From: Pyrobaculum calidifontis JCM 11548
GTDB taxonomy: Archaea; Thermoproteota; Thermoprotei; Thermoproteales; Thermoproteaceae
Assembly: GCF_000015805.1 (NCBI RefSeq)
Contig: NC_009073.1
Span: 600,001-632,000 of the forward strand
Reading direction: 5' to 3'
DNA: 32,000 bases
In this document: positions 1 through 19,684 of the stretch, in pieces
Position numbering within the stretch: the first letter of the stretch is position 1
Layout of the letters: every line of letters starts with the position of its first letter
Position numbers and translations under genes: made by a program
Notes under the pieces: generated by a model
Databases searched by the model: none
Told to the model about the DNA's origin: nothing
What the model saw: the letters and a program-made list of their open reading frames with translations, nothing else

Positions 1-1281
1 GAGCAGATAGGCAAGTTGATAACGCAACTCGCAAACCTCGGCATAGACGCCGACCGGTATGACAGAGTGAGAGACTTCTCGAAGCAGGTGCCGATTGTCC
101 CCACGAGCGCGGTCACCGGCGAGGGGGTGGCCGACCTGCTCCTGGTGCTTGCTGGGGTTAGCCAGCGGTTTATACCGCGGGAGAAGCTCCAAGTCAGAGA
201 CGGCCCCGCGCGCGGCGTCGTGATGGAGGTGAAGGAGGAGAGGGGCCTCGGGGTCGTGGCCGACGTCATTTTGTACGACGGCAAGCTGAGGAAGGGCGAC
301 GTGATAGTCACGGCGGGGCTAGACGGGTCTCGGCAGGCCAAGGTGAGGATGCTCATAATGCCGAAGTCGCTGGAGGAGATGCGGGACCCCGAGGACAAGT
401 TCATGGCTGTGCAAGAGGTGGAGGCGGCGGCGGGCGTGAGGGTAGTGGCGGAGGGGCTTGAGGGCGTGGTGGCGGGCGCCCCGCTTCTAGCCGTGTGGGA
501 CCCAAAGGACCTCCCCGAGGCGCTTAAGAGCGTGGGGGAGGAGATAGCGGAGATCAAAATAGAGTCGGACAAGGAGGGCGTAATCGTTAGAGCAGACACC
601 TTCGGCACTCTGGAGAGCATAATACTCTTCTTAAGACAGCAGGGAGTCCCCGTCAGAAAGGCGGACGTGGGGCCGCCTACGCACAAGGACGTGGTGGAGG
701 CGGTGCTGAGCAGGAGGAAGAACCCCGCCTACGGAGCAATCCTGGCCTTCAACGTGAAAGTGCCCCCGGAGGTGGAGACCGAGGCCCAGTCCTCTGGAGT
801 GAAGATAATACGCGGGGAAATCCTCTACCGCATATTCGACGAGTACGTCAAGTGGTCTACCGAGGTGAAGACGAAGACCGTTGAGCAAGTGCTCTCCCAG
901 CTCACCCGCCCCGCGAAAATCCAAATACTCCCCGGCTACGTGTTTAGGAGGAGCGACCCGGCCATAGTGGGCGTGAAAGTGTTGGCCGGAACGCTCAAGC
1001 CCGGCGTCACCTTGGCCAAAGACGGCAGAGAAGTGGGCAAGGTAATGCAGATACAGCGCCAGGGCAAACCCGTCGCAGAGGCTGTGGCAGGCGACGAGGT
1101 GGCCATATCTATACAGGGAGACGTCATAGTGGGCCGTCAGATAAAGGAGGGAGACGTGCTCTACGTCTATATCCCAGACGAGCAGGCCAGACAGTGGCTA
1201 TTCCGCTACAAGCAGTACCTCAGAAAAGACGAGGTAGAGGCCTTAGAGGAGTACCTGAAGACAAGAAAGAAGTCAGCATAA
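1..1281 (+). CDS. infB: Translation initiation factor aIF5B (IF2-type), C-terminal ~425 aa; the 5' end lies outside the window
   Basis: Frame 1 is open from base 1, so track ORF 16..1281 is only the first in-frame Met. The sequence after the GTPase domain is typical of aIF5B domains II-IV: [78 protein letters not shown]. Confidence 0.85.
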
Positions 1282-1641
1282 ATACTCTTTAACAAATCTG
1301 CCGAGCTGTTGGTCGCAGTTGGCGACGAGATATACAACACCCTCCCTCGATTGTTTTCTCGACAGTGCCGCCGCAATCTTGGGAACCATGGGGTCAACCC
1401 TCCTATGCCCGTGGGCAACTGCCACTATAAGCCCAAAGCCCTGGTAGTCAACAAGAGAGCCCCTCCTAATTGTTTCCACAGTGGCCACCAGCTGGTCTAT
1501 GTCGCGTTTTCTTACGTCCTCAGCCTCTTCTACGACCATTAAAGCTCGCCATCCAACGAGTAAATAATCGGCGCGCTGCTGACCGCCCATTACCAGCAAC
1601 TCGTCTAAGTCGATTCTTTCGGGCCTGCACGTGTCGCTCAT
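1273..1641 (-). CDS. Hypothetical 122-aa protein, second gene of the ATPase operon; possible minimal TOPRIM-like fold (speculative)
   Basis: The ATG at 1641 directly abuts the ATPase stop (TGA 1644-1642, giving TGAATG), so the two genes are co-transcribed or coupled. I recognise no family. The strand/helix alternation is ALMVVEE (E38/E39) - helix - GLIVAVAHG - helix - VVYLVANCD(110)QQ. This places an acidic residue at the end of strand 1 and an Asp about 70 aa later, as in TOPRIM, but there is no intact DxD. The 3' end overlaps the infB stop by 9 nt (convergent). Confidence 0.5.
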
Positions 1642-3027
1642 TCAGCTAGAGAGTATCCTCGCCCTCTCCTCGGCGAGCTCCACGGCGACGCTTGCGAACT
1701 CATCCTCTGAGAATCCCTCCGGCCCAACATCGAGCTTTTCCACAACCGCTCTGTCCCCCTCCGCCTTGACGAGGTACGCGGCCACCGACTCGGGGCGCAA
1801 CACCTCATCCTCGGCGAATCCCAAGGCCCTCGCCCTCTCGGGGGACCGCGAAAGCGCTATGAGGTCGTTCAGCCTATAGAGCATGTAGTCGCTGTGCGTC
1901 GTCAAAACCACGTGCTTACCCCTATTAACTGCCTTCGCGATAAGCCGTGCCAATGCCCCCTGGGCCCGCGGGTGTAAATGAGCCTCAGGCTCCTCTATTA
2001 TTACCACGTGTGGCGGCCCTCTTGAAGAAAGCGCAATGGCTACCGTTAAAACCTCCCTTATTCCAGACGGCGCCTGTGGAAGCCTCAGCCGCTTGCCGCT
2101 CCAAGTCTTGATGTGTATAGTGTACACTCCCTCCTCGATTACAGGCTCAACAGAACATCCCATTTCTAAAAGCAGAGGCTTAACAGCGGCTAAGTCAATA
2201 CTTTCCTTAGCTACCCATTCAGCTAATGCATAATATAGTTCAACGTATTGCTTATCAGGGTATGTTATAGCTATCGGGATATACGGCCTTAGAAGGGTCC
2301 GGGATATTCCAGCGCGACTATCAGGCAAAAGCGCAGAAAAGAGCTCAAGAAAGGGAAAAAGTCCGACGGGAAGGGGTAAGGGGATAAGGTGTTTGAACGG
2401 TCCACCGAGAGTTAACATTATATAAACGCTTACAAACGTGTATAGTAATTCTATAATACTAAATCTGCTTGTTCTTGTTAGTGGAACACTTATTGTAAAG
2501 CGACTTTTATCATAACTAATCGTTACTTCTCTTTGCGAAGTTTTGATCTCGCTTATAAATTCATCAATAGATGGTCCTTTTATAGAAACATCTACATTTT
2601 TTCCATTGATAGTAGTTTCTATCGAAGTCCTCTCCCCCTTAAGCGTTATTGTTGCGTGGTTTGCTCCCTCTCTAACTAATTCGTCTAGATCGAATGTGAA
2701 GACTTTCTTAAGTGCCTCCTCTACGCTTGGTGCAAGAGCTTTGGGCAATACATAGATTGCTATGTTCATAAGTTCCATAAGCTCTTCTTTAAAGTCGTCA
2801 CCACGCTTAGCTTTCTCAATTACAGCTTCCAGCGCCTTGTTGCCCCCAGCATCAACGATAGCTTTTTCAAGTCTTGTTGGACGTGGGATAGCCAGGGTCA
2901 GCGCCCATATGAGATATGCCAACATGGACTTCCCCACGCTGTTTCTACCAATGAAGACAGTCAAGGGCTTGAGCTCTACCTCAGCCTCCCCGAAGGGTCC
3001 AAAGTCTTTTACAACAAGCCTTACCAC
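1642..3027 (-). CDS. ABC/SMC-like AAA ATPase (AAA_15/AAA_21 class 'predicted ATPase'), 461 aa
   Basis: GTG start at 3027 with an AAATTATTTTA TATA-like box about 25 nt upstream (within 3047-3061). Motifs: Walker A GRNSVGKS (aa 27-34), signature-like PSGIREV, Walker B/D-loop VVIIEEPEAHLHP, H-loop LTTHSD. A long insertion separates the A and B motifs. The central part of the gene is much more AT-rich than its ends. Confidence 0.85.
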   Translation of the reverse strand: MVRLVVKDFGPFGEAEVELKPLTVFIGRNSVGKSMLAYLIWALTLAIPRPTRLEKAIVDAGGNKALEAVIEKAKRGDDFKEELMELMNIAIYVLPKALAPSVEEALKKVFTFDLDELVREGANHATITLKGERTSIETTINGKNVDVSIKGPSIDEFISEIKTSQREVTISYDKSRFTISVPLTRTSRFSIIELLYTFVSVYIMLTLGGPFKHLIPLPLPVGLFPFLELFSALLPDSRAGISRTLLRPYIPIAITYPDKQYVELYYALAEWVAKESIDLAAVKPLLLEMGCSVEPVIEEGVYTIHIKTWSGKRLRLPQAPSGIREVLTVAIALSSRGPPHVVIIEEPEAHLHPRAQGALARLIAKAVNRGKHVVLTTHSDYMLYRLNDLIALSRSPERARALGFAEDEVLRPESVAAYLVKAEGDRAVVEKLDVGPEGFSEDEFASVAVELAEERARILSS

Positions 3028-3112: not shown

Positions 3113-3197
3113 TGCGGGGGGTGGGATTTGAACCCACGTAGGCCTACGCCACAGGGTCTTGAGCCCTGCCCCTTTGGCCTGGCTCGGGCACCCCCGC
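3113..3197 (-). tRNA. tRNA-Leu (anticodon CAA), no intron seen, CCA not encoded
   Basis: Minus-strand read: GCGGGGG-TG-CCCGAGCCAGGCCAAAGGGG-CAGGG-CTCAAGA-CCCTG-TGGCGTAGGCCTACG-GTGGG-TTCAAAT-CCCAC-CCCCCGC-A. It has a 7-bp acceptor stem, a 5-bp anticodon stem with loop CTCAAGA, the long variable arm typical of Leu, and a T-arm GTGGG/CCCAC with a TTCAAAT loop. Confidence 0.95.
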
Positions 3198-4053: not shown

Positions 4054-4690
4054 GATATTCGCCTCGTTGCAGGGGGAGGGCGTCAACTTGGGCAAGCCGG
4101 CAGTCTTCGTGAGGCTGGCCGGATGTCCCATTAGGTGCGTGTACTGCGACACGGAGTACTCTTGGGACTTCAACGGGGGCGTCGAGATGTCGCCGGGGGA
4201 GGCCGTGCGGCGCGCCGAGGAGCTGGGGGTGAGGGGCCACGTGGTGGTGACTGGGGGCGAGCCGCTTGTGTGGATGCGGAGGGGCCTCGAGGAGCTTGTC
4301 TGTGGGCTGAGGCGGCTTGGGGCGGTGGAGGTTGAGACCAGCGGAGTATACGCGCCTACGCCCGAGCTAGACGCATGTGCGGACTTCTACGACGTGTCTC
4401 CCAAGTTGTCTAACGCCGGGGTGAAGGCCCCCCTGAGCCCCTTCTACCCCAAGAGCCCCAAGGTGTGGTTTAAATTCGTAGTGGCGGACGTGGCCGACGT
4501 GGAGGAGGCCCTGGCCTACGTAAGGGAGAGGGGGATCCCCCTAGACAGAGTTATGCTAATGCCCATGTCGAAGACGCCGGAGGAGCACGCCGAGGTCCTC
4601 AGGAGGATCTGGGACGCGGCAGTGAGGGCAGGCCTTAGGGTAACCCCGAGGCTCCACATAGTGGCGTGGGGAAACGCGAGGGGCAAGTGA
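4040..4690 (+). CDS. queE: 7-carboxy-7-deazaguanine synthase QueE (radical SAM)
   Basis: N-terminus VRVLEIFASLQGEGVNLGKPAVFVRLAGCPIRCVYCDTEYSW carries the QueE LQGEG motif and the CxxxCxxC radical-SAM cluster. GTG 4040 is chosen because the track ORF start (3932) runs through the upstream gene in another frame. The C-terminus PRLHIVAWGNARGK is typical. Confidence 0.85.
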   Translation: MRVLEIFASLQGEGVNLGKPAVFVRLAGCPIRCVYCDTEYSWDFNGGVEMSPGEAVRRAEELGVRGHVVVTGGEPLVWMRRGLEELVCGLRRLGAVEVETSGVYAPTPELDACADFYDVSPKLSNAGVKAPLSPFYPKSPKVWFKFVVADVADVEEALAYVRERGIPLDRVMLMPMSKTPEEHAEVLRRIWDAAVRAGLRVTPRLHIVAWGNARGK

Positions 4691-5081
4691 GGCGGCTTAC
4701 GAAGCCTACTCCCCGCGGGGCCCCGCCCTTAGGCCGAATTGGTTCGCTGTTTTCTACGGCGAATTTCCGCCGAGTCGGCGGCGCCTTTAACTAAACGGCG
4801 CGCCGTGGTTAAAAGCGGGGATTCAAAGGCTGTACATAAATGTATTTAGATTGTTCAAATAGGCGCCGTTGTGCCTGCCCAGTGGTGGCAGTTGGGTCTG
4901 GAGAATGCGCGTGTTTCGGTAAACTCCACATCACTCCCACGCTGTCTACATCGTTTTTAAACTGTCGTCTGTCACGCGGTGATATGCACCCACGCTCTAA
5001 CTTGGGGGAATTGGCCAAATTTTACGTGGAGGGGGCGAGACTGACGGTAAAGCAAACGTCCCATTTCCTGGGAAACTCATC

Positions 5082-5154
5082 GGGGGAGGGGATGATGAGA
5101 GGGAACTAAGGGGACAGATGCCCGTTGACCTGCTCACTGACTCTCCCCTCCCCC
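5082..5154 (+). ncRNA. C/D-box-like k-turn RNA unit (left arm) closed by a 10-bp terminal stem
   Basis: GGGGGAGGGG (5082-5091) is followed by a C box ATGATGA (5092-5098) and 12 nt. Then come GGGA-CAG-ATGCCCG (degenerate D'/C' that can form a small GGG/CCC hairpin) and 12 nt TTGACCTGCTCA. A D box CTGA (5137-5140), CTCT and CCCCTCCCCC (5145-5154, a perfect complement of 5082-5091) complete the unit. A T-rich tract follows. Confidence 0.45.
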
Positions 5155-5720
5155 TCTTTCTAGTAAACTCTTTGTGGGTTTAGATAAACTTTTCTCCGCC
5201 GACCCGATACTCTACTATTCATGACTCTGAACTTTCATGAGTTGGTAGTCGCTCCTGGCGGCGGTTGTGTGCTGATTAAAGTTTCGGTAACCTCCTTTAG
5301 CCAGACGTTGCATAACTTCGGCGATAGACTGGCGAAAAGGTAGGAGGGTACATATATGGCGTAGTTAAAACGAGCGAGCTTGTTGCAGGCGCATATAGCC
5401 CAGGCATGCTGAACAAGAATCGGCTTAGAGATGCGCTCTACGTTGAGATACCCACCTTTATTGCCTATGAGCAACGCGAGAAGTCGGTAAAAGAGCTGTT
5501 GAACATACTGGCCGCCGCTATGTCATATACCCCCTGCCCCTTTTCGCTAGGTGCATCGCCGAAGTTGGGCAACTCTGGCCGGAGGAGGCCGCCGAGGCTA
5601 GAAATTGGCGCACAGCCGCCAGGGGCGACTGTCAACTCGTGAATGTTCAGAGTCATGAATAGTAGAATATCAGGTCGGCGGGAAAAATTTTTCTAAGCCT
5701 ACAAATAGTTTATATGGAGA

Positions 5721-5792
5721 GGGGGAGGGGAGTGTCAGCTAGCATGGGTTCGGGCAGGAGCCCTTGCCAATCCGCTCATCATTCCCTCCCCC
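5721..5792 (-). ncRNA. C/D-box-like k-turn RNA unit (right arm, mirror paralogue)
   Basis: Minus-strand read: GGGGGAGGGA (5792-5783), C box ATGATGA (5782-5776), 12 nt GCGGATTGGCAA, GGGC-TC-CTGCCCG, 12 nt AACCCATGCTAG, D box CTGA (5738-5735), CACT, CCCCTCCCCC (5730-5721). Boxes, spacing and terminal stem are conserved with the left copy, while both 12-nt guide-position segments differ. Confidence 0.45.
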
Positions 5793-6239
5793 AATGAATT
5801 TTCCCATGACGTATAAGAGCAACCACACTTGCCCACTTCCTCCTCTCTCCATGGAAAACTTGGCCAACTTCCTCGGCCTGAAACACAGATGTATACCACC
5901 ACGTGACAGACGTCGGTTTAAAAGCGAGTGTAGACAGTGTGGAAGCGAGGGGGGTCGCTGAATCTTATGTCTTCCTCAAGTTCAACTGTCACCAGTGGGC
6001 AGGGGCGGCTCCAGCTGTAGCGCGCCGTGTCAATTTGAATGATGTTCGTTTTTGTATCGCTCTTGAACCTCCGCTCTTAACCACGGCGCGCAGGCAAATT
6101 GAAGATACTGCCAATCGGCGGGATCCGCCGTGGGGAACGGCGAAGGTCTTCGGCTTAAAGGCGGGGTCCTTCGGTGAACCGGCTCTTAGAGTTTGATTAA
6201 AAGTGCAAAACTTATCAAGTCGCTCTTGTAATACGGTCT

Positions 6240-8600
6240 GTGAAGCTGCACGTGTGGCTCACCGTTGCCTCGGTAGTGCTCGGCGTGTTGCAGGTAGGTG
6301 CGCAGTACGTATGCGCCACTGCGGGCGAGCTTGGCGTTGCTGGGCGTAGCCCGCTGGTGCAGTTCATGGTGTGGGACGGCGGCTGGAAGCCCGTGGAGGC
6401 CTACGTGGAGGGCGTAGATGCCCTCTTTGTGCCAGCCCCCCTTGCCCGCGGCAACGAGGCGGCGATTTCGCTGGTCGCACAGAGGGGCGTCCTGCCCCCC
6501 GGCGTCTTGAAAAACGAGACCTTGATATGCTTCAAGCCGGGCAGTGGAATTCCCAAGTTGCCCCGGGACACGCCCCGTGGACTACTCGTCGTGTACAAGG
6601 CGGGGGGCGCGGAAGGCCACGTGCTAATCGTCGACGTAGCCGACGTAGACAGGCCAGCACAGCCGCTGGCTGCCGCCGCACTTCCCAAGAACTTCACCAA
6701 GGTCCAGGTGGTGGAGAGACAGTGGGTTGGGAGCCCCGCGGGCCGCGCCGTGGAGCTAGCCCAGGTGGGCGCCTTGCCCTCTCCCATCTCCTACGCGGCC
6801 TCGTTCAGCCTAAGAAGCTTCTTCGGCGCGCAACTGTCGCCCGGCGAATTGAGGTGTAGCTACTTTGACGTCCCCAGCGAGACCAGCTACGTGGCAGTCT
6901 ACTTTAGGCCGGGGACGGACCCAGGCACCTACTACTACGAGGTTAAGAGAAACGGGACACTGGCGTCAAGCGGAGTTATCTCCTACACTGGCGGCCCGTT
7001 TGGGACAGCTCTGTGGGCCAGCGAAACCGGCGGCAGAGCCACCTACCAGCTCTGCATCCAGAACAAAGACAACGTCACGCGGTCCGTCTCGGCGACGGTA
7101 TACCTCTACGTGAGAAACCAGCTAAACATCATCAGAGACGACGCGTATTATACCAACGTCATAGATGTCGACATGTCCACGTCTCAGCGGAGGAACTACC
7201 GCATGTCTAATACGTATTTGTACTTCCCCGGCTACGTGGACATAGACGCGGCGAGCGTCATACAGATCTACGTCTCAGCCCTCTTGAACCCAGAGGCTGT
7301 GCGCAAGGACTCCCAGGGCAGGTACTACATCGACGTGTACTGGGGACAGCTCTATATGGGCAGGCTGTATGGCATATCCACCGCCAGCGGCGTCAAGTTC
7401 GATGGAGTTTTAACAGTCCCAGCGTTCCTACACTGGATAATTACAAACACGCGGGGGTACGGCGGCACGATATCGATAGGCCCCTTCAACTACCCAGCCT
7501 ACCCAGTTAAGGGCAGTGCACGAGTAGATGTCTTTGTGGAGAGGCCCGTGGAGCTGGCCAACGCCAGCTCTGCCGTGTTGATCCATTATGCGACTGTAAG
7601 GCTCAGAGCTGACGCATCCTATCACGATGTAATGCCGTGGTCCAGCGGCTTCAAAGGCGTCTCTTTTAAGACTAGAGTGGAATTTGTATTCAGCGGCTCA
7701 GCTGGTCATAAACTTGTAGTATCAATAAATCCATACAAGTGGAATAATGTTGAAAATGATATAAGGTATAGAAGAATTACTATTAATATAACAGGTATAG
7801 ATTATTATGGTAACCCTGTGAAGTTTAGCGCTGGCGGCCAGTTCGACTTAAATGCTCAAAGTACCACAGGCCAGTTGGCGAGGCTGATTGAGTGGGCATC
7901 CATAATTCTGCAAGGTCTCGATCTAGGAAAGGCCGTCGTAGATTATCTTGCAAAGGCTCCCTCGTCGTTTCCCACCGTCTCCTTCATAACTATTGCACTA
8001 GACGCCTATGTCAATGCCATACAAGAAAAAGGCACTGTGCAGATTTCGCCAGATGGCACTATTATGAAGATCGGCGTATATACAGGGTATTTGTTCAACA
8101 TTCCACTTTACCTACTGTTTTTCTTGCGTTTTCCCGTGCCCGATCTGCTTCCGCCGTCTGTGATTTCATGGTTTTCTGCCTACTACTTGGCGCACGGCCG
8201 CCGCATTTTTCCGCCGGCCCTCTACCTTGCGGCGTTTGCCTCCTCTCTCTTAGATTCGTTGTATTTTGGCCCCCGCGTTGGATCGCTGGCCTCGCCTGTG
8301 GTGTTGCTGGCGGCGCTGGCTTTGGCCGTGCTTTACGCGGCTACTTTTGCGAGGGGCTTTGGGCAGAGGGTGGCCTCTGTGGTGCTCCTCGTATTAGCCG
8401 TGGCGGTGGGCCACGTCCTCGTGGTGGCGGCGGCTGTGGCGTGGCGAGCCCTGGCGCCTCCGCTGGGCTTTCTGCCCCTGCCCGAGCCCCTGGACCTCCC
8501 CCTCTATCTGTTGGCCTTCGCGGTGTTCTACCTCGTCCATTATAAAGGCCTGGGTTACCTACACAGGTGGTGTGAAAGCCGCAGGGTGAGAGGCGCCTAG
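6240..8600 (+). CDS. Large orphan membrane glycoprotein: N-terminal signal/anchor, ~600-aa extracellular region, C-terminal polytopic membrane domain
   Basis: GTG start. The N-terminus is hydrophobic (LHVWLTVASVVLGVLQVGA). There are many N-x-S/T sequons (NET, NFT, NGT, NVT, NAS, NIT). The last ~200 aa contain several hydrophobic helices (e.g. LASPVVLLAALALAVLYAATF, VASVVLLVLAVAVGHVLVVAAAVAW, LPLYLLAFAVFYLV). I recognise no family. Confidence 0.7.
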   Translation: MKLHVWLTVASVVLGVLQVGAQYVCATAGELGVAGRSPLVQFMVWDGGWKPVEAYVEGVDALFVPAPLARGNEAAISLVAQRGVLPPGVLKNETLICFKPGSGIPKLPRDTPRGLLVVYKAGGAEGHVLIVDVADVDRPAQPLAAAALPKNFTKVQVVERQWVGSPAGRAVELAQVGALPSPISYAASFSLRSFFGAQLSPGELRCSYFDVPSETSYVAVYFRPGTDPGTYYYEVKRNGTLASSGVISYTGGPFGTALWASETGGRATYQLCIQNKDNVTRSVSATVYLYVRNQLNIIRDDAYYTNVIDVDMSTSQRRNYRMSNTYLYFPGYVDIDAASVIQIYVSALLNPEAVRKDSQGRYYIDVYWGQLYMGRLYGISTASGVKFDGVLTVPAFLHWIITNTRGYGGTISIGPFNYPAYPVKGSARVDVFVERPVELANASSAVLIHYATVRLRADASYHDVMPWSSGFKGVSFKTRVEFVFSGSAGHKLVVSINPYKWNNVENDIRYRRITINITGIDYYGNPVKFSAGGQFDLNAQSTTGQLARLIEWASIILQGLDLGKAVVDYLAKAPSSFPTVSFITIALDAYVNAIQEKGTVQISPDGTIMKIGVYTGYLFNIPLYLLFFLRFPVPDLLPPSVISWFSAYYLAHGRRIFPPALYLAAFASSLLDSLYFGPRVGSLASPVVLLAALALAVLYAATFARGFGQRVASVVLLVLAVAVGHVLVVAAAVAWRALAPPLGFLPLPEPLDLPLYLLAFAVFYLVHYKGLGYLHRWCESRRVRGA

Positions 8601-8974
8601 GCGCACAGCGCTGGCCGCCTAAGACGGCGCCAGAGGAGGTCGCCATCTGCCGACATGTGCTACGTCTCTAGCCCAGCACGGCTGGGGCTTCTGCCCCGCC
8701 TACACGACACGTTGATTGAAAAACTGTATCGACGCAACGCCGCCGATCCGCCGACGCGTTTGCCTAAGCGTCTCAATTCCTTTACTTTAGTCACAAACTA
8801 GTGGGCTCTTGGACTGTGTCTAAGAACTGCGTCTCTGGTTGTCGATAGCGCTTCTTAGAGAGCCGCTGTTCATGGACGTGTCTGGCTAATGCGAGGTGCT
8901 TCTAGCCGCCCTGGCGTGTGGCCGATTCCAAGCCCCTCGGGGAGATAAAATATTTACCCCTCTCCTTCTCCTCC

Positions 8975-9109
8975 ATGGCTCGCACCAAGGCGGAGAGACT
9001 GCGCGACGCCATTGAGATGCTTGAGACGGCTGTGGAGGAGAGGGATTGTAGCCTCGTGGAGGATGCGCTAGAGGAGCTACGCGCGTTGCTTGAGGAGCTG
9101 GAGGAGTGA
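8975..9109 (+). CDS. Small acidic helical protein (44 aa), translationally coupled to the dipeptidase
   Basis: ATG 8975 lies 22-28 nt downstream of the TATA-like ataaaatattta (8945-8956). The sequence is MARTKAERLRDAIEMLETAVEERDCSLVEDALEELRALLEELEE. Its stop overlaps the next start (GTGATG). The track ORF start at 8918 precedes the TATA box. Confidence 0.45.
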   Translation: MARTKAERLRDAIEMLETAVEERDCSLVEDALEELRALLEELEE

Positions 9110-10029
9110 TGCTCGTCGACTTGCACGAGGATATTGCACACTATTTTCTCACCTCTCTCAACCCCCCTCCGTTTCACGAGGACGCGGAGGGAAGGCAGAG
9201 CGACTTGCCTAAGCTGAGGAGGGCGGGCGCCGATGTGGTAGTCGCCGCGGTGTTCCCCTTTGTCCACGTCTACGATAGGTGGGCCGCCGCGTCTCAAGTG
9301 GCGCTGGAGGGGGTGAAGGTGTACTACTCCCTCGCCGAGAGATACGGCGTGAGGATAGTGGAGCGCGCAAGCGACCTCTGGGCCCCCGCGCTTAAGTTCA
9401 TGCTGGCGCTGGAGGGCGCAGACGTGTTAAACGACGTTGGCGACCTCAAGCTGTTTTATAGGCTGGGCATACGCGTCTTGGGGATTACGTGGAATTTAGA
9501 CAACAAGTGGGGCCACTCTTGCTACGCCAAGCGTGACGGAGGCTTGACCGCCAGCGGCGAGGAGCTCGTCGCCGAGGCCGAGAGGCTGGGAGTGGTCATA
9601 GACCTCGCCCATGCCAGCCGCCGCACGGCTTTAGACGTCTTGGCCATGGCCAAGAGGCCTGTGATAATAAGCCACGCCAACGTAAAAGCCGTCCACGACC
9701 ACCCGCGCAACGTCGACGACGAGGTGTTAAAGGCCTTGGCGGACAACGGCGGGGTAATAGGCCTCACACTGATCCCCTCCACTATCTCCCCCTCCCCCTC
9801 TCTCAACCACTTGGTAAAGCACTTCAAGTACGTGAGGGAGAAGTTTGGGGTGGAGGTACTCGCCGTGGGGACAGACTTCCTTGGCATTTCCTCGGCGCCT
9901 CCTGGGCTGGAGACTGTGGACAAGGTAGCTGTTTTGGCCAAGGCGCTTGTGGAGGTCGGCTTTTCCAAAGAGGAGGTAGAGGCCGTGTTTTGGAGAAACG
10001 CGCTACAAGTCTTTAAGAGGGCCTTATAA
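9109..10029 (+). CDS. Membrane (renal-type) dipeptidase, peptidase family M19
   Basis: The N-terminal LVDLHEDIAHY matches the M19 metal-binding DxHxD motif. The sequence has a TIM-barrel-like pattern with LGITWN, VIDLAHAS, PVIISHANV and GTDF. The start could be ATG 9109 or GTG 9106. Confidence 0.75.
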   Translation: MLVDLHEDIAHYFLTSLNPPPFHEDAEGRQSDLPKLRRAGADVVVAAVFPFVHVYDRWAAASQVALEGVKVYYSLAERYGVRIVERASDLWAPALKFMLALEGADVLNDVGDLKLFYRLGIRVLGITWNLDNKWGHSCYAKRDGGLTASGEELVAEAERLGVVIDLAHASRRTALDVLAMAKRPVIISHANVKAVHDHPRNVDDEVLKALADNGGVIGLTLIPSTISPSPSLNHLVKHFKYVREKFGVEVLAVGTDFLGISSAPPGLETVDKVAVLAKALVEVGFSKEEVEAVFWRNALQVFKRAL

Positions 10030-10056
10030 CTTATAAGGTTGAAACGGCTTTGGTGC

Positions 10057-10455
10057 ATGGGTCTCGGCGATGTGCTCTTGGTCCTCCACGTTTTAGGCAT
10101 CGTCGGGTGGGCGGGCCTCACCACGGGGGCATATTTCGTGCTGAGGGAGTGGCGCCCCCGCGAAGTGCCTAAGTCCTATCAAAGGCTTGTCCACCTAGAG
10201 GCCGCGGCGGGCGCCTTGGTCTTCGCCACGGGGGTGGCCATGGCGGTGTACCTCTACGGCTTCCCCAAGTCCCCCCTGTGGATACACTGGGCTCTGGGGA
10301 TCGCGATAGTGGTGGGCCTGCTGGAGGTCTTCCACGTCTATGCCGTCCGTCGGTGGCCTCTTGAGCGATATGTGAGACTTGCGAACCGCCTAGTGCCCGT
10401 GTGGGCGGCTGTCTTAGTTTTAATGCTCTGGCTGATGGTGGCTAAGCCGTTTTAG
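10057..10455 (+). CDS. Small integral membrane protein (about 4 TM), unknown function
   Basis: ATG 10057 lies 25-30 nt downstream of a palindromic TATA element, ccttataacttataagg (10022-10038). There are four hydrophobic segments. The track start TTG 10039 lies inside the TATA element. Confidence 0.6.
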   Translation: MGLGDVLLVLHVLGIVGWAGLTTGAYFVLREWRPREVPKSYQRLVHLEAAAGALVFATGVAMAVYLYGFPKSPLWIHWALGIAIVVGLLEVFHVYAVRRWPLERYVRLANRLVPVWAAVLVLMLWLMVAKPF

Positions 10456-11453
10456 CCCCGCGCCACCTTTGCCCTGGCCTTTTTCAAGGCCAGTTCTACC
10501 TCCTCCGCGGAGGCCCCCAGCCAGTTGGCCTCCCTCAGCGCCTCGGGGGAAATTTCAATTGTGCCGTCTGGCCCCCTCTGCCCCCTCTTCTGTATCTCCC
10601 ACATAAGCCTGTACACCCTGTCCCGCTTCGCCTGCACGGCTAGAATGGCCTCCTCGAGGGACTGCCCCGCGAGGGTTCTCAGCACTATTTCTGCAACTTT
10701 GTTAATCCGGTCGGGCACCCCCACGGTGGACCCCCTGAGCTCTATGCGGCACCTCTTCTCTACGCCTATGAGCTCCGCCAGCCGCCTTGTGCCAGACTTC
10801 ACCACGTGTTCCTTGTCCACAATGCCGCCGATGATGAACTCTACATGGCTCCGGGCGACCTCCTCTGTGAATAGGCAGGGGCCCTCGGGGTCTAAAACCA
10901 CAGGCGACTGGAGAGGCGGCATGTCTTCCACAATGCGCATCTTGTGAACCATGCCCCTCGCGTGTAGCTCCAATAGCCTCACAAACTCCGCCGGGGCGTG
11001 GGTAATCCACAGATTGCCATCCCAGAGCACCCCCCTCACCACCCCCAGCGTTGCCAAGATCTGTTCCACAAGCTCGTGTTTTTCGCCAGGCGTGTGTTCG
11101 TCCCACAGAGAGAGGTCTATCACTATGCGCGGCGCCTCTGGCAGAGACACATCCACGTTGATCGGCTCGGCGCACTGCTTGGCAAGAGTCCACGGACACT
11201 CGGCGCCGCCGCCCGCGCGGAGAAGCTCCACGCCGCTCCACACCCCAAGGGGGGAGCCCCTGCACGGCGACTTGCACACGTGGTACTTCCCAATGGCCAC
11301 CCCCACTGCCACGCACTGCGCCAGCTCCCCCCTACACTTAAAGTGGCGTGGGATACAGAGGCAGGAAACGCCCTGTGAGGCCAGTGCGTCGAAGAAAATA
11401 CGCCAGAGGGGAGTCAAGTGGGGGTCGCGGGGGGAATCCGCGGCTAGACCCAC
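10452..11453 (-). CDS. trm10: Trm10-like SPOUT tRNA (m1R9) methyltransferase with a Cys-rich N-terminal extension
   Basis: IVIDLSLWDEHTPGEKHELVEQI and LRGSTVGVPDRINKVAEIVLRTLAG match what I remember of archaeal Trm10 (IIDLYHWDKHTQKEK ... VGVPDRINRILGIIL in the Thermococcus enzyme). IIGGIVDKE is also present. The start is set to GTG 11453 because the track start at 11573 overlaps the upstream metE-like gene by 130 nt, and there is no in-frame ATG before residue ~190. Confidence 0.7.
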   Translation of the reverse strand: MGLAADSPRDPHLTPLWRIFFDALASQGVSCLCIPRHFKCRGELAQCVAVGVAIGKYHVCKSPCRGSPLGVWSGVELLRAGGGAECPWTLAKQCAEPINVDVSLPEAPRIVIDLSLWDEHTPGEKHELVEQILATLGVVRGVLWDGNLWITHAPAEFVRLLELHARGMVHKMRIVEDMPPLQSPVVLDPEGPCLFTEEVARSHVEFIIGGIVDKEHVVKSGTRRLAELIGVEKRCRIELRGSTVGVPDRINKVAEIVLRTLAGQSLEEAILAVQAKRDRVYRLMWEIQKRGQRGPDGTIEISPEALREANWLGASAEEVELALKKARAKVARG

Positions 11454-12598
11454 CAGTACTTTTCCCTCAGCGCCTTGGCGGCCTTTACCATTACTTTGAG
11501 CTTCTCCAGCGCCACTGCCCTTGGGAAGGCCCTGTACATGCCTGGGGCGAAGCCACAGTCCGGATTTAGCCAAATCCGCGTGGGGTCTACGTACTTCGCG
11601 ACTCTCTCCACGTGGGCCACGACCTCTTCCACTGTTTCAACTCTCTTGGGGTCTCTCACGTCTATCGAGCCTAGACCTATCTCTTTGTCGCTTGGCAGTA
11701 TCTTGGCGAATTCCTCGGGGTTGCCCATCCTCGGGTGCTTGTACTCAACGACGTATTGCCGCACCTTAATGTCGAAGATCTGCGGCGCCAGCCTCTCATA
11801 GCCCACCACTGGGGAGTCCTCAGTGGGCCACCTGTCGAGGTGCATCCCCAGCCTCACCGACGTGCCGTAGCCCTGCACCACCTCGTTTACCAAGTCAACG
11901 GCGAGCTGGATCTCGTCTCTGAGGCCTCTGTACCGCTGTCCATAGAGCTCGGAGGCCACTTGCTTGTACCTATCCGGCTTGTCGGGCTCCGCCTCTATTA
12001 AGTCCCCCAACATTGGCTCGTCCAGCTGTATAAACGCCACGCCTTTGTCGATGAGGCGCGCGATCTCTCTCCGAAGCACCTTGGCGTAGGCCTCTGCGGC
12101 GTCTTCGGGCCGCGGGTAGTAAGGCGCAGAGATCTTGTGGTGCCAAGCCTCCCACATTATCAAGTAGGGGGACGGGAGGGTGACCTTGAGAGGCCTCGTG
12201 GCGACCTTCTTGGCGTACTCCACCTCGTCCACGGCTATGATGCTGTCCTCTATGTACCCCGCGATCACGGGTCTCCACAGGGTGAGAGGCGCCTTGTACT
12301 TCTTCATTATCTCCTTTGCGTTTGGATGTAGCTCCTCCACGCGGACGATCTTAAACCCCCTGAGCTTCTGTCCCACAAAGGCTACGAAGGAGGTCCTCCT
12401 CTGCTCCCCGTCGGTTATCACGTCTAGCCCAGCCTCCTCCTGGTCTCTAATGGCGAGCTTCACGGCGTCGTCTAGGTACTGGGAGAAGGTCTGCTGGTCT
12501 AACTGCCCCTTTTCAAATTTTTCAAACGCCTCGATTAGCCAGCTGGGCCTCGGCCACGACCCCACTACCGACGTTATAAACGCCCGTGGCAGAGACAT
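11444..12598 (-). CDS. Cobalamin-independent methionine synthase-like protein (MetE catalytic-domain family)
   Basis: The sequence MSLPRAFITSVVGSWPRPSWL ... DQEEAGLDVITDGEQRR ... IQLDEP ... NPDCGF is typical of the short archaeal MetE/Meth_synt_2 family. ATG 12598 lies 20-27 nt from the tttaaaaa box (12618-12625). The track start at 12679 is upstream of that box. Confidence 0.8.
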   Translation of the reverse strand: MSLPRAFITSVVGSWPRPSWLIEAFEKFEKGQLDQQTFSQYLDDAVKLAIRDQEEAGLDVITDGEQRRTSFVAFVGQKLRGFKIVRVEELHPNAKEIMKKYKAPLTLWRPVIAGYIEDSIIAVDEVEYAKKVATRPLKVTLPSPYLIMWEAWHHKISAPYYPRPEDAAEAYAKVLRREIARLIDKGVAFIQLDEPMLGDLIEAEPDKPDRYKQVASELYGQRYRGLRDEIQLAVDLVNEVVQGYGTSVRLGMHLDRWPTEDSPVVGYERLAPQIFDIKVRQYVVEYKHPRMGNPEEFAKILPSDKEIGLGSIDVRDPKRVETVEEVVAHVERVAKYVDPTRIWLNPDCGFAPGMYRAFPRAVALEKLKVMVKAAKALREKYWWV

Positions 12599-12709
12599 AG
12601 GGGCAAGTAAACCCCCCTTTAAAAACTCTACACGGCCTTCGCGCTCGCCCCCCGGCCGATTAGCCCACAGTCGTATCAATGTTAATATAGGGGAGATGAA
12701 GTAGCGTCT

Positions 12710-13918
12710 ATGTCTGTGGGTGGGAAAAGATTAGAAAACGTGTACCTAGTGGCATTTGCAAGAACGGCTTTTACAAGGTTCTCGCGGAAGGAGCCTCAGA
12801 AAGACGACTTCTGGGACCTAAGGCCGGAGGAGATAGCCGCAGTCCCTGTCAGGGCAATCCTCGAGAGGACTGGCGTAAAGCCCGAGGCGGTGGAGGACCT
12901 GCTTACCGGCACCGCGCTTCCGGTGGGCGAGCAGTGGCTCTACGGCGGCCGCCACGTCGTCTTTGCCGCAAAACTTCCCTACACAATACCTGCGGCCCAT
13001 ATAGATCGACAGTGCGCGAGTTCCATAACCACGGTGGCCATGGGCGCCATGGAGGTGGCCTCAGGCATGGCCGACGTGGTTATCGCCGGCGGAGTAGAGA
13101 AGATGTCTAAGACCCCCATGTATGAGAATCCCCACATCGAGATAAACCCCAAGTTTCTCACCGACGAGGAGTATGTCCACTTGTACAACCTCCACATTGG
13201 ATACGTCATGGGCCTGACCGCGGAGAGGCTCGCCGAGGTGTCTGGCATTAAGCGCGAGGAAATGGATGCCTGGTCTCTAAGGAGCCACAAGAGGGCTGCA
13301 GAGGCCTACGAAAAGGGGTACTTCAAGGAGGAGATAGTGCCAGTGGCCGTGGAGAAAGAGGGGCAGAAAAAGGTGGTTGACAGAGACCAGGCTGTTAGGC
13401 CGGACACCACTCTAGAGGCCTTGGCCAAGCTGCCGCCTGCCTTTAAGCCAGACGGCGTAATAACCGCCGGCAACTCCTCGCCGCTTAACTCGGGGGCGGC
13501 CTACGTAATGTTAGCCTCAGGCGAGGCTGTTAAGAAGTACGGCCTCCAACCCTTGGCAAAGGTGAGAGCAGTGGCCTTTGCCGGCGTTCCCCCAGAGGTT
13601 ATGGGCATGGGCCCCGTCCCCGCGTCTAGGAAGGCCCTTGAAAAGGCAGGCCTCACGGTGAAGCAGATAGGCAGGTGGGAGATCAATGAGGCCTTTGCCG
13701 TGGTGACTCTCTACGCGATAAAGGAGCTGGGCATAGACCCGGAGCTTGTGAACACAAGGGGCGGCGCCATCGCCATCGGCCACCCGCTGGGGGCAACTGG
13801 CGCAAGGATAATAGGGACGCTCGCGAGGCAGCTACAGCTCGACGGCGTGGACTACGGAGTGGCGACCCTCTGCGTAGGCGGAGGCCAAGGCGCCGCCGTT
13901 GTGCTAGAAAGAGTTTAA
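12710..13918 (+). CDS. Acetyl-CoA C-acetyltransferase (thiolase)
   Basis: Thiolase motifs are present: active-site Cys context DRQCASSITTV, NEAFA, GHPLGATGARI, CVGGGQGAAVVLE. The TATA-like ttaatata (12682-12689) lies 28 nt upstream of the ATG. Confidence 0.9.
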   Translation: MSVGGKRLENVYLVAFARTAFTRFSRKEPQKDDFWDLRPEEIAAVPVRAILERTGVKPEAVEDLLTGTALPVGEQWLYGGRHVVFAAKLPYTIPAAHIDRQCASSITTVAMGAMEVASGMADVVIAGGVEKMSKTPMYENPHIEINPKFLTDEEYVHLYNLHIGYVMGLTAERLAEVSGIKREEMDAWSLRSHKRAAEAYEKGYFKEEIVPVAVEKEGQKKVVDRDQAVRPDTTLEALAKLPPAFKPDGVITAGNSSPLNSGAAYVMLASGEAVKKYGLQPLAKVRAVAFAGVPPEVMGMGPVPASRKALEKAGLTVKQIGRWEINEAFAVVTLYAIKELGIDPELVNTRGGAIAIGHPLGATGARIIGTLARQLQLDGVDYGVATLCVGGGQGAAVVLERV

Positions 13919-13940
13919 AAACAACTTATTTCCTCCTCAT

Positions 13941-15344
13941 ATGCGTCTTTTGGCGGCGGTCCTACTGCTGGCAATAGCAGCTTTTTCCGTCACAATTGTA
14001 ACAAGGGCCGACCAAGCCTCAATTGACAGAGCGTTGCCAGTGCTACAGCGGTATTTCCCCGATGTGAAAATAGTACCGGCGGACCCCACCCAGTGGAGGG
14101 CCCTTATTGACCGAGGGGGCGTGGACTTCCTGTGGGCAGGCGCGCCGGTTTTATACGAGGTTTTACTGAAGGAGGGGCGGCTGGCGCCTATGCCCAATGT
14201 CCCCGAGCTACAAGCGTTGCCGGACAAGGTGGGCAACATACCGCTCAAGAGGGTGGTAAACGGTAGCGTGTACTACGTGGTATACGGCTTGTTGGGCTAC
14301 GTAATTGGCTACAACCAGGAGGCGCTCAAGAGGGCCGGCTTAGAGCCTGTGTGTAGCTGGAGCGGCTTCTCCTCTCCCAAGCTTGTCCAATACTACCTCC
14401 AGACAGGGAGCCGCCCCGTGGCCTTGGCGAAGCCCACTAAGTCTACCTCGACTGCGGCTATGATGCAGCTTGTGACAGAGATATACGGGTGGGAGGAGGG
14501 CTGGCGCTACCTAACGGCGATGGCGGCTGTGGCTAGGTTTGTGGACTCCAGCGGCGCCGTGCGCGACGCCGTGAAGCGAGGAGAGGCCCTCTTCGGCCCC
14601 ATGGTGGACTACTATGTCTTCATCGCGGGGCTGGGCTACTGTGTGCCAGAGGACGGCACAGACATACTGTTTGACCCAATTGCGGTCCCCAAGGGCGCCA
14701 ACATGACCGCGGCGGCTGTTTTGACAAGAGTCTTTCTCACAGACATTGAGAAGACTCTTGTAGATCGCTACATAATCCCCGGCAACCCCGCCGTGTTAGA
14801 CTCTCCAGATGTAAATCAGACAAAGGCGGCGGTGTTAAAGAGGCACCTAGAGTTGCTTAAGTCGAAGGTAAAGGCTGTGCCGCCTGAAAAGTCGGCTTCG
14901 TTCTACTACTCCTTCATCTACTACTACGAGGCCACCCTAGTTGACTTGCAAGACGTCTTAACAGACGTGTGGACGAAGGTGGTTAAGGCGTACCTCGCCG
15001 GCAACATCACGCGGCAGCAGTTCGAAGAGCTGTTGAGTCTCCTCGCCGCGCCGGTCAACTTCACAGACCCAGCCACGGGGGAGCGGCTCAAGTTTACATA
15101 CGACGTAGCGGTGAAGCTCAATGACAAGGTGGGGTCAGACCCCACTTACAGAGACCTAGTGTATCAAGCCTGGAGAGAAGCCGCCAGGGCCAAGTACAGA
15201 GAGGTAGAACGCCGGCTCGAGAGCTACCTCGCCTCCAAGCCCGCCGGCGGGGCCCCCTCGGCCGCCTTGCTCACGGCCGCCGCGGTCGGCGCCTTTGCAG
15301 TTGCAGTGGGGGCTTACCTACTAATGAGGCGGAGGGCGGGCTAG
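13941..15344 (+). CDS. Secreted periplasmic-binding-protein-like (ABC solute-binding family 1-like) protein with a C-terminal TM anchor
   Basis: N-terminal signal MRLLAAVLLLAIAAFSV. The PBP-like pattern is DVKIVPADPTQW...GGVDFLWAGAPVLYEVLLKEGRLAP and LLGYVIGYNQEALKRAGLEP. The C-terminal anchor is ALLTAAAVGAFAVAVGAYLLMRRRAG. No permease or ATPase gene is adjacent. Confidence 0.5.
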   Translation: MRLLAAVLLLAIAAFSVTIVTRADQASIDRALPVLQRYFPDVKIVPADPTQWRALIDRGGVDFLWAGAPVLYEVLLKEGRLAPMPNVPELQALPDKVGNIPLKRVVNGSVYYVVYGLLGYVIGYNQEALKRAGLEPVCSWSGFSSPKLVQYYLQTGSRPVALAKPTKSTSTAAMMQLVTEIYGWEEGWRYLTAMAAVARFVDSSGAVRDAVKRGEALFGPMVDYYVFIAGLGYCVPEDGTDILFDPIAVPKGANMTAAAVLTRVFLTDIEKTLVDRYIIPGNPAVLDSPDVNQTKAAVLKRHLELLKSKVKAVPPEKSASFYYSFIYYYEATLVDLQDVLTDVWTKVVKAYLAGNITRQQFEELLSLLAAPVNFTDPATGERLKFTYDVAVKLNDKVGSDPTYRDLVYQAWREAARAKYREVERRLESYLASKPAGGAPSAALLTAAAVGAFAVAVGAYLLMRRRAG

Positions 15345-15601
15345 ACACCCAGTAGGTCTAGCAGCCACTTCCACTGGCTGTAGGACTCCAACAGTTTTAA
15401 CCCCTCGGCCGAGATACAGAAAGTCCCCGCGTTTTCCCTCACTAGCCCCCTCGCCACGAGTGCCTCGAGGATTTTAACCATTCTGTCGTAGGCCAGGTTG
15501 GCCTCTGTGGCTATCCTAGTCGGCGGCTTACACTCAGCCTTGACTGTCTCGAGGATGTCTATCACAATCTCAAGCCTACTTCTCCTTCTTTTCCTGGCCA
15601 T
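15341..15601 (-). CDS. Small winged-helix DNA-binding protein (COG3432-like archaeal regulator)
   Basis: MARKRRRSRLEIVIDILETV...PTRIATEANLAYDRMVKILEALVARGLV is the typical N-terminal basic stretch plus wHTH of this family. It is the last gene of the FtsX operon and overlaps the upstream gene by 26 nt. Confidence 0.7.
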   Translation of the reverse strand: MARKRRRSRLEIVIDILETVKAECKPPTRIATEANLAYDRMVKILEALVARGLVRENAGTFCISAEGLKLLESYSQWKWLLDLLGV

Positions 15602-16121
15602 ATGCCAAGCCCAGCGCTAGGAAGAGCGCGGTGAGAGATCTAAACACCACGTCTTGGAAGGCGAAGAGCGGCGTCATAATAGACGCCGCGAAGAAGATAA
15701 AGGCGATGGAAATCCACGGGGCTACCCCCCTCTCCAAGCTCCTCAACAGTGTGACCACGGCGATGTACAGAGAGAGGGCCACGTTGACGGGTAGGAGGAA
15801 TAGGAGCAACGGCACTGCGGCGTAGAGGCTGGTGGGCGTCACGGCAATGGCCAAGGGGACGAGGGCGGCCAGCTGAAGCAGAAGTAAAACTGCGCGGAGG
15901 CCAGCCGCTTGATGGATCACAAATCTCCACGGGGCCTGGCCTGCGGCTAGCCTCAGGAGGAAATCTGCCACTGCCTCAACGGCGAGGGACACGGCGAGCA
16001 TCAGCATGCCGAAGGAGTACAGCGACAGCCTCCAGTCGGCCAAGCTCCTCCACGCCCTAAGAGTGAGGTAGCCTATGTACAACGCCAGCGCCACTATGAT
16101 TAAGTCTGGGATAAAGATCAT
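15576..16121 (-). CDS. Polytopic membrane protein (5-6 TM), unknown function
   Basis: It has an ATGA start/stop overlap with the FtsX permease gene (16118-16121). Hydrophobic helices run throughout and the tail is charged (GQEKKEK). Confidence 0.6.
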   Translation of the reverse strand: MIFIPDLIIVALALYIGYLTLRAWRSLADWRLSLYSFGMLMLAVSLAVEAVADFLLRLAAGQAPWRFVIHQAAGLRAVLLLLQLAALVPLAIAVTPTSLYAAVPLLLFLLPVNVALSLYIAVVTLLRSLERGVAPWISIAFIFFAASIMTPLFAFQDVVFRSLTALFLALGLAYGQEKKEK

Positions 16122-17341: not shown

Positions 17342-17374
17342 GTGCGCCTCGTTGTTCCTAGATAAAAATTATAA

Positions 17375-17389
17375 CTCACCTCAGGTGAG
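17375..17389. promoter_or_regulatory. Perfect 7-1-7 palindrome CTCACCT-C-AGGTGAG between two divergent TATA boxes (candidate operator)
   Basis: It sits between gataaaaattataa (the TATA for the minus-strand FtsX operon) and gcttataataac (the TATA for the plus-strand surface protein gene at 17423). Confidence 0.5.
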
Positions 17390-17422
17390 CATAGCTTATA
17401 ATAACCCCTCAAAAGCCAGGGC

Positions 17423-19528: not shown

Positions 19529-19646
19529 GCCGAAGCCCGTTAAATCTACGTTTTTGGCACAGAAAGAGGCGGATACTTGCCGGCCCGGCTGCCTCACGAC
19601 TCGGACTCGCCCTCGGCAGTCACTTCTCCTCGTGTGCAATTACTCC

Positions 19647-19669
19647 CCACTTAATAACTTTTTAAGTGG
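19647..19669. promoter_or_regulatory. Inverted repeat CCACTTAA-taacttt-TTAAGTGG embedding the TATA box of the yjbQ-family gene
   Basis: There are perfect 8-bp arms at 19647-19654 and 19662-19669. The AT-rich centre lies about 25 nt upstream of ATG 19685. Confidence 0.45.
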
Positions 19670-19684
19670 TGTCTAGTGGATGTC

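Follow-up and report, generated by a model that had tools for sequence, protein, structure and literature searches.

A palindrome without intact genes downstream of queE in Pyrobaculum calidifontis: probably two decayed, head-to-head ends of an integrating element

How did a 1.5-kb palindrome without intact genes come to lie in an archaeal chromosome, and does it still serve a purpose there? The question is raised by a stretch of 32,000 nucleotides of Pyrobaculum calidifontis JCM 11548 (assembly GCF_000015805.1, contig NC_009073.1, positions 600,001 to 632,000 of the forward strand), henceforth the window, to which all coordinates refer unless another contig is named. The gap between the stop codon of queE (4690) and the next start codon (6240) is occupied by a long imperfect palindrome. 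An initial annotation had regarded it as an ancient conserved chromosomal locus and proposed a pair of convergent structured RNAs, a replication origin or the head-to-head junction of a linear replicon. We consider it probable that the palindrome consists of two decayed, head-to-head copies of the non-coding end of an integrating element, located within a strain-specific insertion.

When 4700-5440 was globally aligned with the reverse complement of 5441-6190, 513 columns matched, 173 were mismatched and 119 held gaps (75% identity); the arms are collinear throughout, and the score of 447 compares with 6.1±3.1 (maximum 15) for 100 shuffles. An inverted-repeat search returned nine collinear inverted blocks (I1-I9), including one of 80 nt that is 86% identical between the arms (5186-5265/5612-5691). 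The palindrome is therefore real, and an arm identity of 75% agrees with its description as a diverged inverted repeat and not a recent hairpin. The block midpoints (5438-5445) fit the single axis near 5440 that had been proposed, but the arms do not meet there: about 150 nt in the centre (~5350-5507) are unique and non-palindromic. An nhmmer profile of the repeat family described below finds exactly two copies in the window, at 4692-5500, where the match overruns the arm into the unique centre, and at 6193-5507. The arm limits derived from it (4692-~5392 on the plus strand, 6193-5507 on the minus strand) show the earlier estimate of 4721-6166 to be sound if slightly narrow.

4692..5392, plus strand: left arm, a copy of the non-coding terminal/upstream region of a mobile-element family, running from outer to inner (nhmmer, 699 bits)
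5507..6193, minus strand: right arm, a second, diverged copy of the same family region, running from outer to inner on the minus strand (nhmmer, 633 bits)

Comparison of one arm with the other by tblastx gave no consistent frame, and the initial annotation had named decayed copies of an ordinary gene as one outcome that would undo its functional interpretation. None of the open reading frames (ORFs) in the gap or in the centre of the related contig L004 (see below) has a significant match in Pfam or PHROGs. The earlier statement that the gap lacks genes thus holds for intact genes; it does not extend to a relic of 44 codons at 5394-5525, within which a small agag-atgcg-ctct palindrome is situated. 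Neither Rfam nor ARAGORN gave a match in the gap above threshold, in keeping with the earlier exclusion of a CRISPR (clustered regularly interspaced short palindromic repeats) array, rRNA or tRNA. A tRNA-derived attachment site was also considered and dropped, ARAGORN having found no tRNA in the arms.

We have compared the genomic contexts of QueE homologues and then searched the contigs against the window with blastn. In P. oguniense TE7 (L001), queE is directly followed by a 42-aa ORF and then by an M19 dipeptidase gene. In L002, a metagenomic sister contig with flanks 91-95% identical to those of the window, queE, a 44-aa ORF and the M19 peptidase gene succeed each other uninterrupted; its empty site, between 5646 and 5647, corresponds to window position 4688 joined to 8948, with clean junctions. 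L001, L002 and L003 have no palindrome in the interval from queE to the M19 peptidase gene. With nothing between queE and the next gene in the sister strain or in P. oguniense, the segment that separates the two in the window is an insertion relative to both.

4689..8947, no strand: insertion of 4.26 kb, present in the window and in L004/L007, absent from L002 and P. oguniense

The insertion comprises the palindrome, an ORF of 786 aa and a tail of ~350 nt. Contig L004 carries the 3' end of queE (95% identical), both arms, and two genes of 704 and 186 aa, while L007 carries the right arm and the same two genes. The right arm of the window is 84% identical overall to that of L004 (92% in the outer ~290 nt) and 89% identical to that of L007. 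A want of the conserved blocks at orthologous loci had been named by the initial annotation as a further outcome against its functional interpretation; in effect this is the case, for the closest orthologous loci lack the entire region.

The arms belong to a dispersed family of non-coding sequences of ~0.7 kb found in hot-spring Pyrobaculum metagenomes. A metagenome scan with a block invariant in all arms yielded the copies in L009 and L012, and the left arm has blastn matches to L012, L018, L021 and L022 (it is included in family alignment A8). Single arms occur at unrelated loci (L012, L009, L018/L019, L021 and L022), always upstream of, and co-directional with, a gene for a protein of ~110 aa: the arm in L018/L019 lies between PaREP1 genes, that in L021 beside a cytochrome bd oxidase, and in L022 the order is arm, ~110-aa gene and a gene for an 899-aa ATPase. 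The copies are 60-90% identical to one another. No long inverted repeats were found in L018, L021 or L020, so the palindromic arrangement appears specific to the queE locus. A scan of the GTDB species representatives with CTCTGAACNTTCAYGAGTTG returned only three chance bacterial matches, a weak negative, since this block is missing in L018, L021 and L022.

Blocks conserved across the family are GTTAAAAGCGGGGGTTCAA in the terminal segment T defined below, CTGTCTACA...TTTAAAC..CGTCTG, the hairpin GGGGGAGGGG-ATGATGA...CTGA...CCCCTCCCCC, and ACTTCGGCGAT. The hairpin at 5082-5157 is the most conserved block across eight family copies. A block of 22 identical nucleotides, to which attention had been drawn, is indeed common to both arms but is not conserved in more distant copies.

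5082..5157, plus strand: conserved hairpin, left copy, GGGGGAGGGG-ATGATGA...CTGA-C.C-TCCCCTCCCCC, with C/D-box-like (kink-turn-like) boxes
5718..5804, minus strand: conserved hairpin, right copy, GGGGGAGGG(A)-ATGATGA...CTGA...CCCCTCCCCC

The ~110-aa gene itself is lost from the window: the centre of L004 is longer by ~600 nt, and this extra sequence includes the gene (L004 909-1250). The gene is real: substitutions among the copies in L004, L009 and L012 fall on third codon positions and the one indel measures 9 nt. Its homologues form 23 protein clusters (P0046-P0068), all from hot-spring metagenomes. They carry the motifs YKVISVPKSAV...VVIVAG.PQ.GN..IAIEARRW, a pattern that recalls DNA binders of the AbrB/SpoVT type. 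A structural model of the protein reached a pLDDT (predicted local distance difference test) of 59 and gave no meaningful match in PDB. The inner end of the left arm enters part of the region that precedes the ~110-aa gene in other copies.

The connection with an integrating element is provided by a 20-kb contig of the Joint Genome Institute (JGI; 3300005799 Ga0079638_100072), here L020/L023 (L023, 1-12295), of whose 20,187 nt the analysis covered 7893-20187. The outer part of both arms, T, is common to the window and the end of the element integrated in this contig.

4694..4826, plus strand: terminal segment T of the left arm, 80% identical to L020 146-278 and common to the integrated element end in L020/L023
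6040..6169, minus strand: terminal segment T of the right arm, 75% identical to L020 301-170

Similarity in T starts exactly at the boundary of the insertion in the window; in L020 its starting point is precisely the cut in an mscS-like host gene on the minus strand (PF00924, E = 1.4e-5). The end of the arm thus coincides with an end of the element. Both copies of T contain GGRCCCCGCCYTTARGCCGAA, at 4718-4738 (plus strand) and 6149-6169 (minus strand), for which 0.03 chance matches are expected. A few nucleotides inside each boundary of the insertion there is a self-complementary motif, CTCCCCGCGGGGC at 4708-4720 on the left, mirrored by GCCCCTCGGGGAG at 8930-8942 on the right, and L023 has TTCCCGCGGGA at the equivalent place; this motif could be a recombination site or a terminator hairpin.

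The element in L020/L023 encodes a Zn-finger protein, a homologue of the ~110-aa protein, an ATPase of 801 aa, a protein of 313 aa, a family-B DNA polymerase (PolB) of 766 aa and an integrase. The ATPase has a Walker A motif and a weak match to superfamily 3 (SF3) helicases (PF00910, at Walker A). The polymerase (PF00136, E = 1.8e-7) has its best PDB relatives in Thermococcus PolB (E = 2e-15), and the 188-aa integrase is of the Xer-like tyrosine type (PF00589, E = 7.8e-21). The homologue of the ATPase in L022 (862-3561; 899 aa) has a weak C-terminal match, below cutoff, to PBP2 (PolB1-binding protein 2; PF22511, E = 1.2e-4), which hints at an element helicase that recruits a PolB.

A trace of the same ATPase survives in the unique centre of the palindrome.

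5394..5525, plus strand: pseudogene relic of an SF3-like ATPase/helicase, 44 codons corresponding to residues 322-365 of the 801-aa protein

With the L020/L023 protein as the query, tblastn recovered the relic at 52% identity across 44 aa, the E value being 1e-8 when only the gap was searched and 3e-7 for the whole window; the 899-aa protein of L022 matches the relic with E = 5e-8. The Walker-B-like FVADE/FIADE has become FIAYE, by which the Walker B aspartate is lost. The arms themselves are not decayed copies of the genes of the L020 element, for none of the L020 proteins matches the arm interior.

Variable presence with sharp junctions, homology that begins at an element/host junction and dispersed copies were all found, as expected of an integrated element. 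The arms had been declared neither an insertion sequence (IS) nor a miniature inverted-repeat transposable element (MITE), and in the narrow sense this stands: there is no transposase and no clear target duplication, the window has only two copies, and the copies are 60-90% identical. They are mobile-element DNA nonetheless, the end of the family coinciding with that of an integrase-carrying element. The head-to-head replicon junction, for its part, was correct in that two element ends face each other, but a tyrosine integrase and a PolB of cellular type are encoded by the related element, and we found no evidence of a linear replicon with hairpin ends or inverted terminal repeats (ITRs). A protein-primed ITR replicon was likewise dropped, the related PolB being of the cellular Thermococcus type and not of the phi29 type.

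The element family is apparently undescribed, without relatives in the virus and plasmid records searched or in IMG/VR. No match was obtained for the palindrome in a phage collection (blastn), for the 801-aa protein in phages and plasmids (tblastn), or in scans of IMG/VR with three DNA patterns, two proteins and one protein profile.

How did two such ends come to face each other? We have aligned five arms in one orientation and measured their identities by region. The outer parts group by position: the left arm of the window is 0.88 identical to the left arm of L004, and the right arm 0.92 and 0.90 to the right arms of L004 and L007, respectively. An in-situ inverted (fold-back) duplication of a single integrated end would explain why both arms extend to one and the same terminus of the element (positions 3 and 6 of the profile), why they are collinear throughout and why the two units differ mainly by internal deletions; the arms would once have been identical and have since diverged to 69-75%, each with deletions of its own. 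We nevertheless regard this origin as unlikely. In its outer part, the left arm of the window is closer to L012, which has different flanks (0.79), than to its own partner (0.69), and the right arm is 0.72 identical to L018. More generally, the left-type arms (window and L004) are 0.76-0.86 identical to L012 and 0.61-0.72 to the right-type arms; for the left arm of the window, these values are 0.79-0.86 and, to the right arm, 0.61-0.69. Furthermore, an indel of 16-25 nt that separates the left type from the right type is common to other loci, L012 on one side and L018 and L021 on the other, and the difference between the arms is about twice the divergence of orthologues. The greater closeness of the left type to L012 and the distribution of the indel make it more likely that two members, diverged beforehand, were inserted separately than that one end was duplicated by folding back.

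Towards the centre, this pattern is reversed. The innermost part of the left arm is 0.90 identical to the right arm of L004 and that of the right arm 0.77 identical to the left arm of L004, and the unique centre lies the other way round: the frame of the helicase relic runs on the plus strand in the window (5394-5525) and on the minus strand in L004 (1446-1309). Because the inner identities are swapped and the relics lie on opposite strands, recombination between the arms must have inverted the centre and the inner arms in one of the two lineages. The crossover is placed around the most similar stretch, near 5080-5200, and ~0.3-0.9 kb was flipped. In addition, patches of variants common to the two arms of one contig testify to gene conversion. 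Inversions bounded by inverted repeats have been documented in Pyrobaculum (PMC3558965).

We propose the following course of events. In its more intact copies, the element begins with its end (T), followed by the arm, the ~110-aa gene and the gene for a large SF3-like ATPase/helicase, to which one relative adds a PolB and a tyrosine integrase. Downstream of queE, two such ends would have ended up facing each other, the likeliest route being two separate insertions of family members that had diverged beforehand. Each unit is an element end facing inward, one made up of T, the arm and the ~110-aa gene (subsequently lost in the window), the other of T, the arm, an internal deletion and the helicase relic. 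Internal deletions would have removed nearly everything between the ends, leaving the 44 codons of the helicase. Since the arms are long inverted repeats, they could recombine; homologous recombination between them has flipped the centre with the inner arms, and gene conversion has patched the arms. The surviving blocks of 10-25 nt would be those parts that were under selection in the living element, for instance binding sites. In an active element, we infer, the arm would act in cis as a control region or origin, with the attachment end on one side and the replication operon on the other; the copies in the window are most likely inert at present.

The divergence of the arms accords with such decay. 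Orthologous arms differ by p = 0.08-0.16 and by many indels, a rate roughly 0.4-0.8 of the synonymous one; between orthologues of the adjacent gene, the synonymous differences (pS) amount to 0.15-0.21 and the non-synonymous ones (pN) to 0.05-0.08, with pN/pS of 0.3-0.4. This indicates that the arms are under weak constraint at most. Divergence near the synonymous rate and the absence of the region from a sister contig 91-95% identical in its flanks and from P. oguniense speak against the view of an ancient, conserved chromosomal locus.

Could the arms instead be two paralogous, convergent RNA genes that are still functional, either long structured RNAs or kink-turn, L7Ae-binding ones (5082-5157 and 5718-5804)? 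The hairpin would suit the latter: a C/D-box-like RUGAUGA...CUGA is closed by a stem of 10-11 bp and kept in seven of eight copies, the sequence between the boxes varying, and a TTTAAA box with a conserved block downstream of it lies ~130 nt upstream of the hairpin. Single-sequence folds of both arms and both strands had z-scores of -1.0 to -2.5, too weak to decide the matter; that of the left arm is mildly negative (-2.4). Against gathering as well as permissive thresholds, Rfam recognised only a tRNA-Leu elsewhere, the matches in the gap being sub-threshold (16-19 bits, E = 0.4-2.6); the best for the hairpin was sR36, with 16 bits as against a gathering score of 55 (E = 0.42). RNAalifold, applied to the kink-turn module and to block 5186-5345 in 5-8 copies on both strands, detected no meaningful covariation, its power being limited by the few sequences. 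Two-sided changes occurred in two of the alignments, each time in a single sequence and at a single predicted pair, and were lacking in the other two; the stems are otherwise invariant or broken.

The G/C stem of 10-11 bp (5083-5157 and 5718-5791; A11/A12) has undergone one-sided changes that yield six G·U and two A·C pairs when read on the inner-to-outer strand. On the strand with the C/D-like boxes, they yield two G·U and five A·C; the changes thus produce A·C on the very strand that would form the kink-turn and G·U on the opposite one, in numbers too small to decide. Of the boxes of a box C/D small RNA (sRNA), there are C- and D-like ones, but C'/D' boxes are unconvincing, and the would-be guide positions are the least conserved, varying most between copies; no search for complementary targets was made. 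A scan for sigma-70 promoters and terminators carries no weight in an archaeon.

With no Rfam family above noise, weak fold scores and no compensatory support in 5-8 sequences, a rate of evolution near the synonymous one and a locus that the sister strain can dispense with, we find the structured-RNA proposal of the initial annotation quite improbable. A related scenario would make the arm the gene for a long structured RNA of an undescribed Pyrobaculum element family, with an L7Ae-type kink-turn hairpin, acting in replication or copy-number control or against host defence. The two convergent copies would then have been kept as still active ones, e.g., as decoys or to provide immunity when relatives of the element arrive. 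We give this very little credence.

A replication origin, whether chromosomal with inverted sites like the origin recognition box (ORB) or captured from an extrachromosomal replicon and still firing, would account for the many short dyads (CTGCC-N7-GGCAG with a CCAGTGG core, TTGGCCAA and GGCGCGCC) and for a G+C content of 0.50-0.53 in the region, compared with 0.6 in the flanks. The arm also lies directly upstream of the element's replication genes in intact copies, and archaeal capture of extrachromosomal origins is known (cited in PMC5333045). A conserved chromosomal origin, as first suggested, is nonetheless contradicted by the presence/absence polymorphism, the region being absent from the sister strain and from P. 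oguniense. There is no initiator at the locus, the helicase is cut to 44 codons with a mutated Walker B, and Pfam detected no Orc1/Cdc6 family among 28 ORFs scanned (those of the gap, the genes on its flanks and the majority of the window's large ORFs). The base composition has no sharp AT-rich dip that would make a marked unwinding element, and the likeness of the dyads to ORB sites is at best putative. Taken jointly, both kinds of origin strike us as very unlikely.

Between the right arm and the start of a surface-type gene there are 47 nt; this gene occupies most of the remaining insertion.

6240..8600, plus strand: ORF of 786 aa, an in-frame fusion of the gene for a 704-aa secreted, beta-rich protein and the gene for a 186-aa multi-pass membrane protein
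8601..8947, no strand: non-coding tail that extends to the right junction of the insertion, 95% identical to L004 4812-5020

This position, together with the opposite orientations of the centre and inner arms in the window and L004, might suggest an invertible phase-variation switch that controls the adjacent gene for the 704-aa secreted protein. The invertible part of the window, however, holds nothing but a pseudogene relic, the TATA-like box of the gene is outside the arm, in a spacer conserved to 94%, and there is no recombinase nearby. A single fixed difference between strains does not demonstrate switching, and we deem such a switch scarcely credible.

The ORF of 786 aa is, judging from the comparison with L004 and L007, a strain-specific chimera: a stretch of 304 nt in L004 (3995-4298), also present in L007, is deleted in the window between 8087 and 8088, which leads to the in-frame fusion. 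Its homologues P0040 and P0041 are 90% and 83% identical to it over 78% of the ORF. A homologous pair of the 704-aa and 186-aa genes, 33% identical, occurs without arms in an ordinary, unrelated host context. The 704-aa protein had no match in phages and plasmids (tblastn), and its structural model (pLDDT 46) was too poor for use. As a lead only, a review counts secreted, largely beta-stranded proteins that go with a membrane protein among the expansions specific to Pyrobaculum (PMC4158269).

Several observations weigh against two decayed element ends as the full account of the insertion. The 704-aa/186-aa gene pair lies inside it, yet has no link to the element family, so that part of the history of the 4.26-kb segment is left unexplained. 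Of the arm, no more than the outer ~135-155 nt (T) recurs in L020/L023, which leaves ~550 nt unlinked to an autonomous element, and no element was recovered at full length, with both of its ends. At the empty site of L002 there is neither a sequence like the arm end nor a clear target duplication at the junctions. L004 is a metagenome assembly, on which its orientation rests. Finally, some blocks do not vary in any copy, the GGGGGAGGGG...CCCCTCCCCC hairpin above all, and some residual function may therefore persist in the window.

A small ORF lies on one side of the locus and an ATPase gene with a match to a defence protein on the other. A conserved ORF of 44 codons (MARTKAERLRDAIEMLE...) at 8975-9109 overlaps the start of the M19 peptidase gene and marks the right flank of the insertion; an ORF of 42-46 aa is found in all relatives. 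On the left, beside the tRNA-Leu (3113-3197), the minus strand carries at 1273-3027 a 461-aa AAA_15 ATPase that matches the defence protein PD-T4-4_A in PADLOC (E = 1.8e-33), with a partner protein of 122 aa that has no match. L002 has a gene for a B12-binding radical-SAM protein and PadR at this position instead. In L003, a similar ATPase gene with a small gene forms an insertion that separates the 46-aa ORF from the M19 peptidase gene.

Reading the palindrome as two decayed element ends removes a tempting false lead: what resembles an origin or an RNA locus by its size, symmetry and want of genes would be a scar of mobile DNA specific to the strain. The lead worth following is the element family, with its 0.7-kb leader, ~110-aa protein, SF3-like ATPase, cellular-type PolB and Xer-like integrase, not the palindrome. 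The locus also offers a small and clean example of diverged inverted repeats that drive inversion and gene conversion in Pyrobaculum genomes.

Some features of the locus recur in known systems. Like an archaeal oriC with ORB sites, it has inverted, dyad-containing sites around a centre of lower G+C; the repeat unit is 700 nt here and 20-35 nt there, and the locus is not conserved in the sister strain, lacks an adjacent initiator gene and has no defined AT-rich unwinding element. Archaeal box C/D sRNAs and kink-turn RNAs have in common with the hairpin RUGAUGA and CUGA ~40 nt apart, a terminal stem and a spacing that fits 12-nt guides, whereas the stem of 10-11 bp is unusually long here, the guides are variable and the motif is embedded in mobile-element DNA. 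MITE-like or solo-LTR-like (long terminal repeat) relics equally keep the terminal non-coding parts, lose the internal genes and occur as dispersed copies. The arms differ from them in their length of ~0.7 kb, not tens of nucleotides, in that no target-site duplication was seen, and in that nothing indicates mobilisation of the palindrome, other family copies being single arms.

The inversions at GluDH and RAMP/paREP in P. oguniense (PMC3558965) are of the same kind, in that long inverted duplications flank a segment that is found both ways as a result of homologous recombination. They span 22-173 kb, compared with ~0.3-0.9 kb here, where the arms are non-coding and 70-75% identical and where the two orientations occur in different strains, not within one population. 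From the relics of integrated elements, cryptic plasmids or proviruses, in archaeal dark-matter islands (PMC4158269), the window differs by the lack of a tRNA target, a clear attachment-site duplication and an integrase, by two like ends that face each other, and by the lack of detectable similarity to deposited virus or plasmid sequences or IMG/VR contigs. It resembles them in its variability among strains, in a boundary at the element end that abuts a disrupted host gene in a relative, in the integrase, SF3-like ATPase and polymerase of the related element, in the pseudogene fragment of a replication gene, and in fast-evolving, unannotated proteins.

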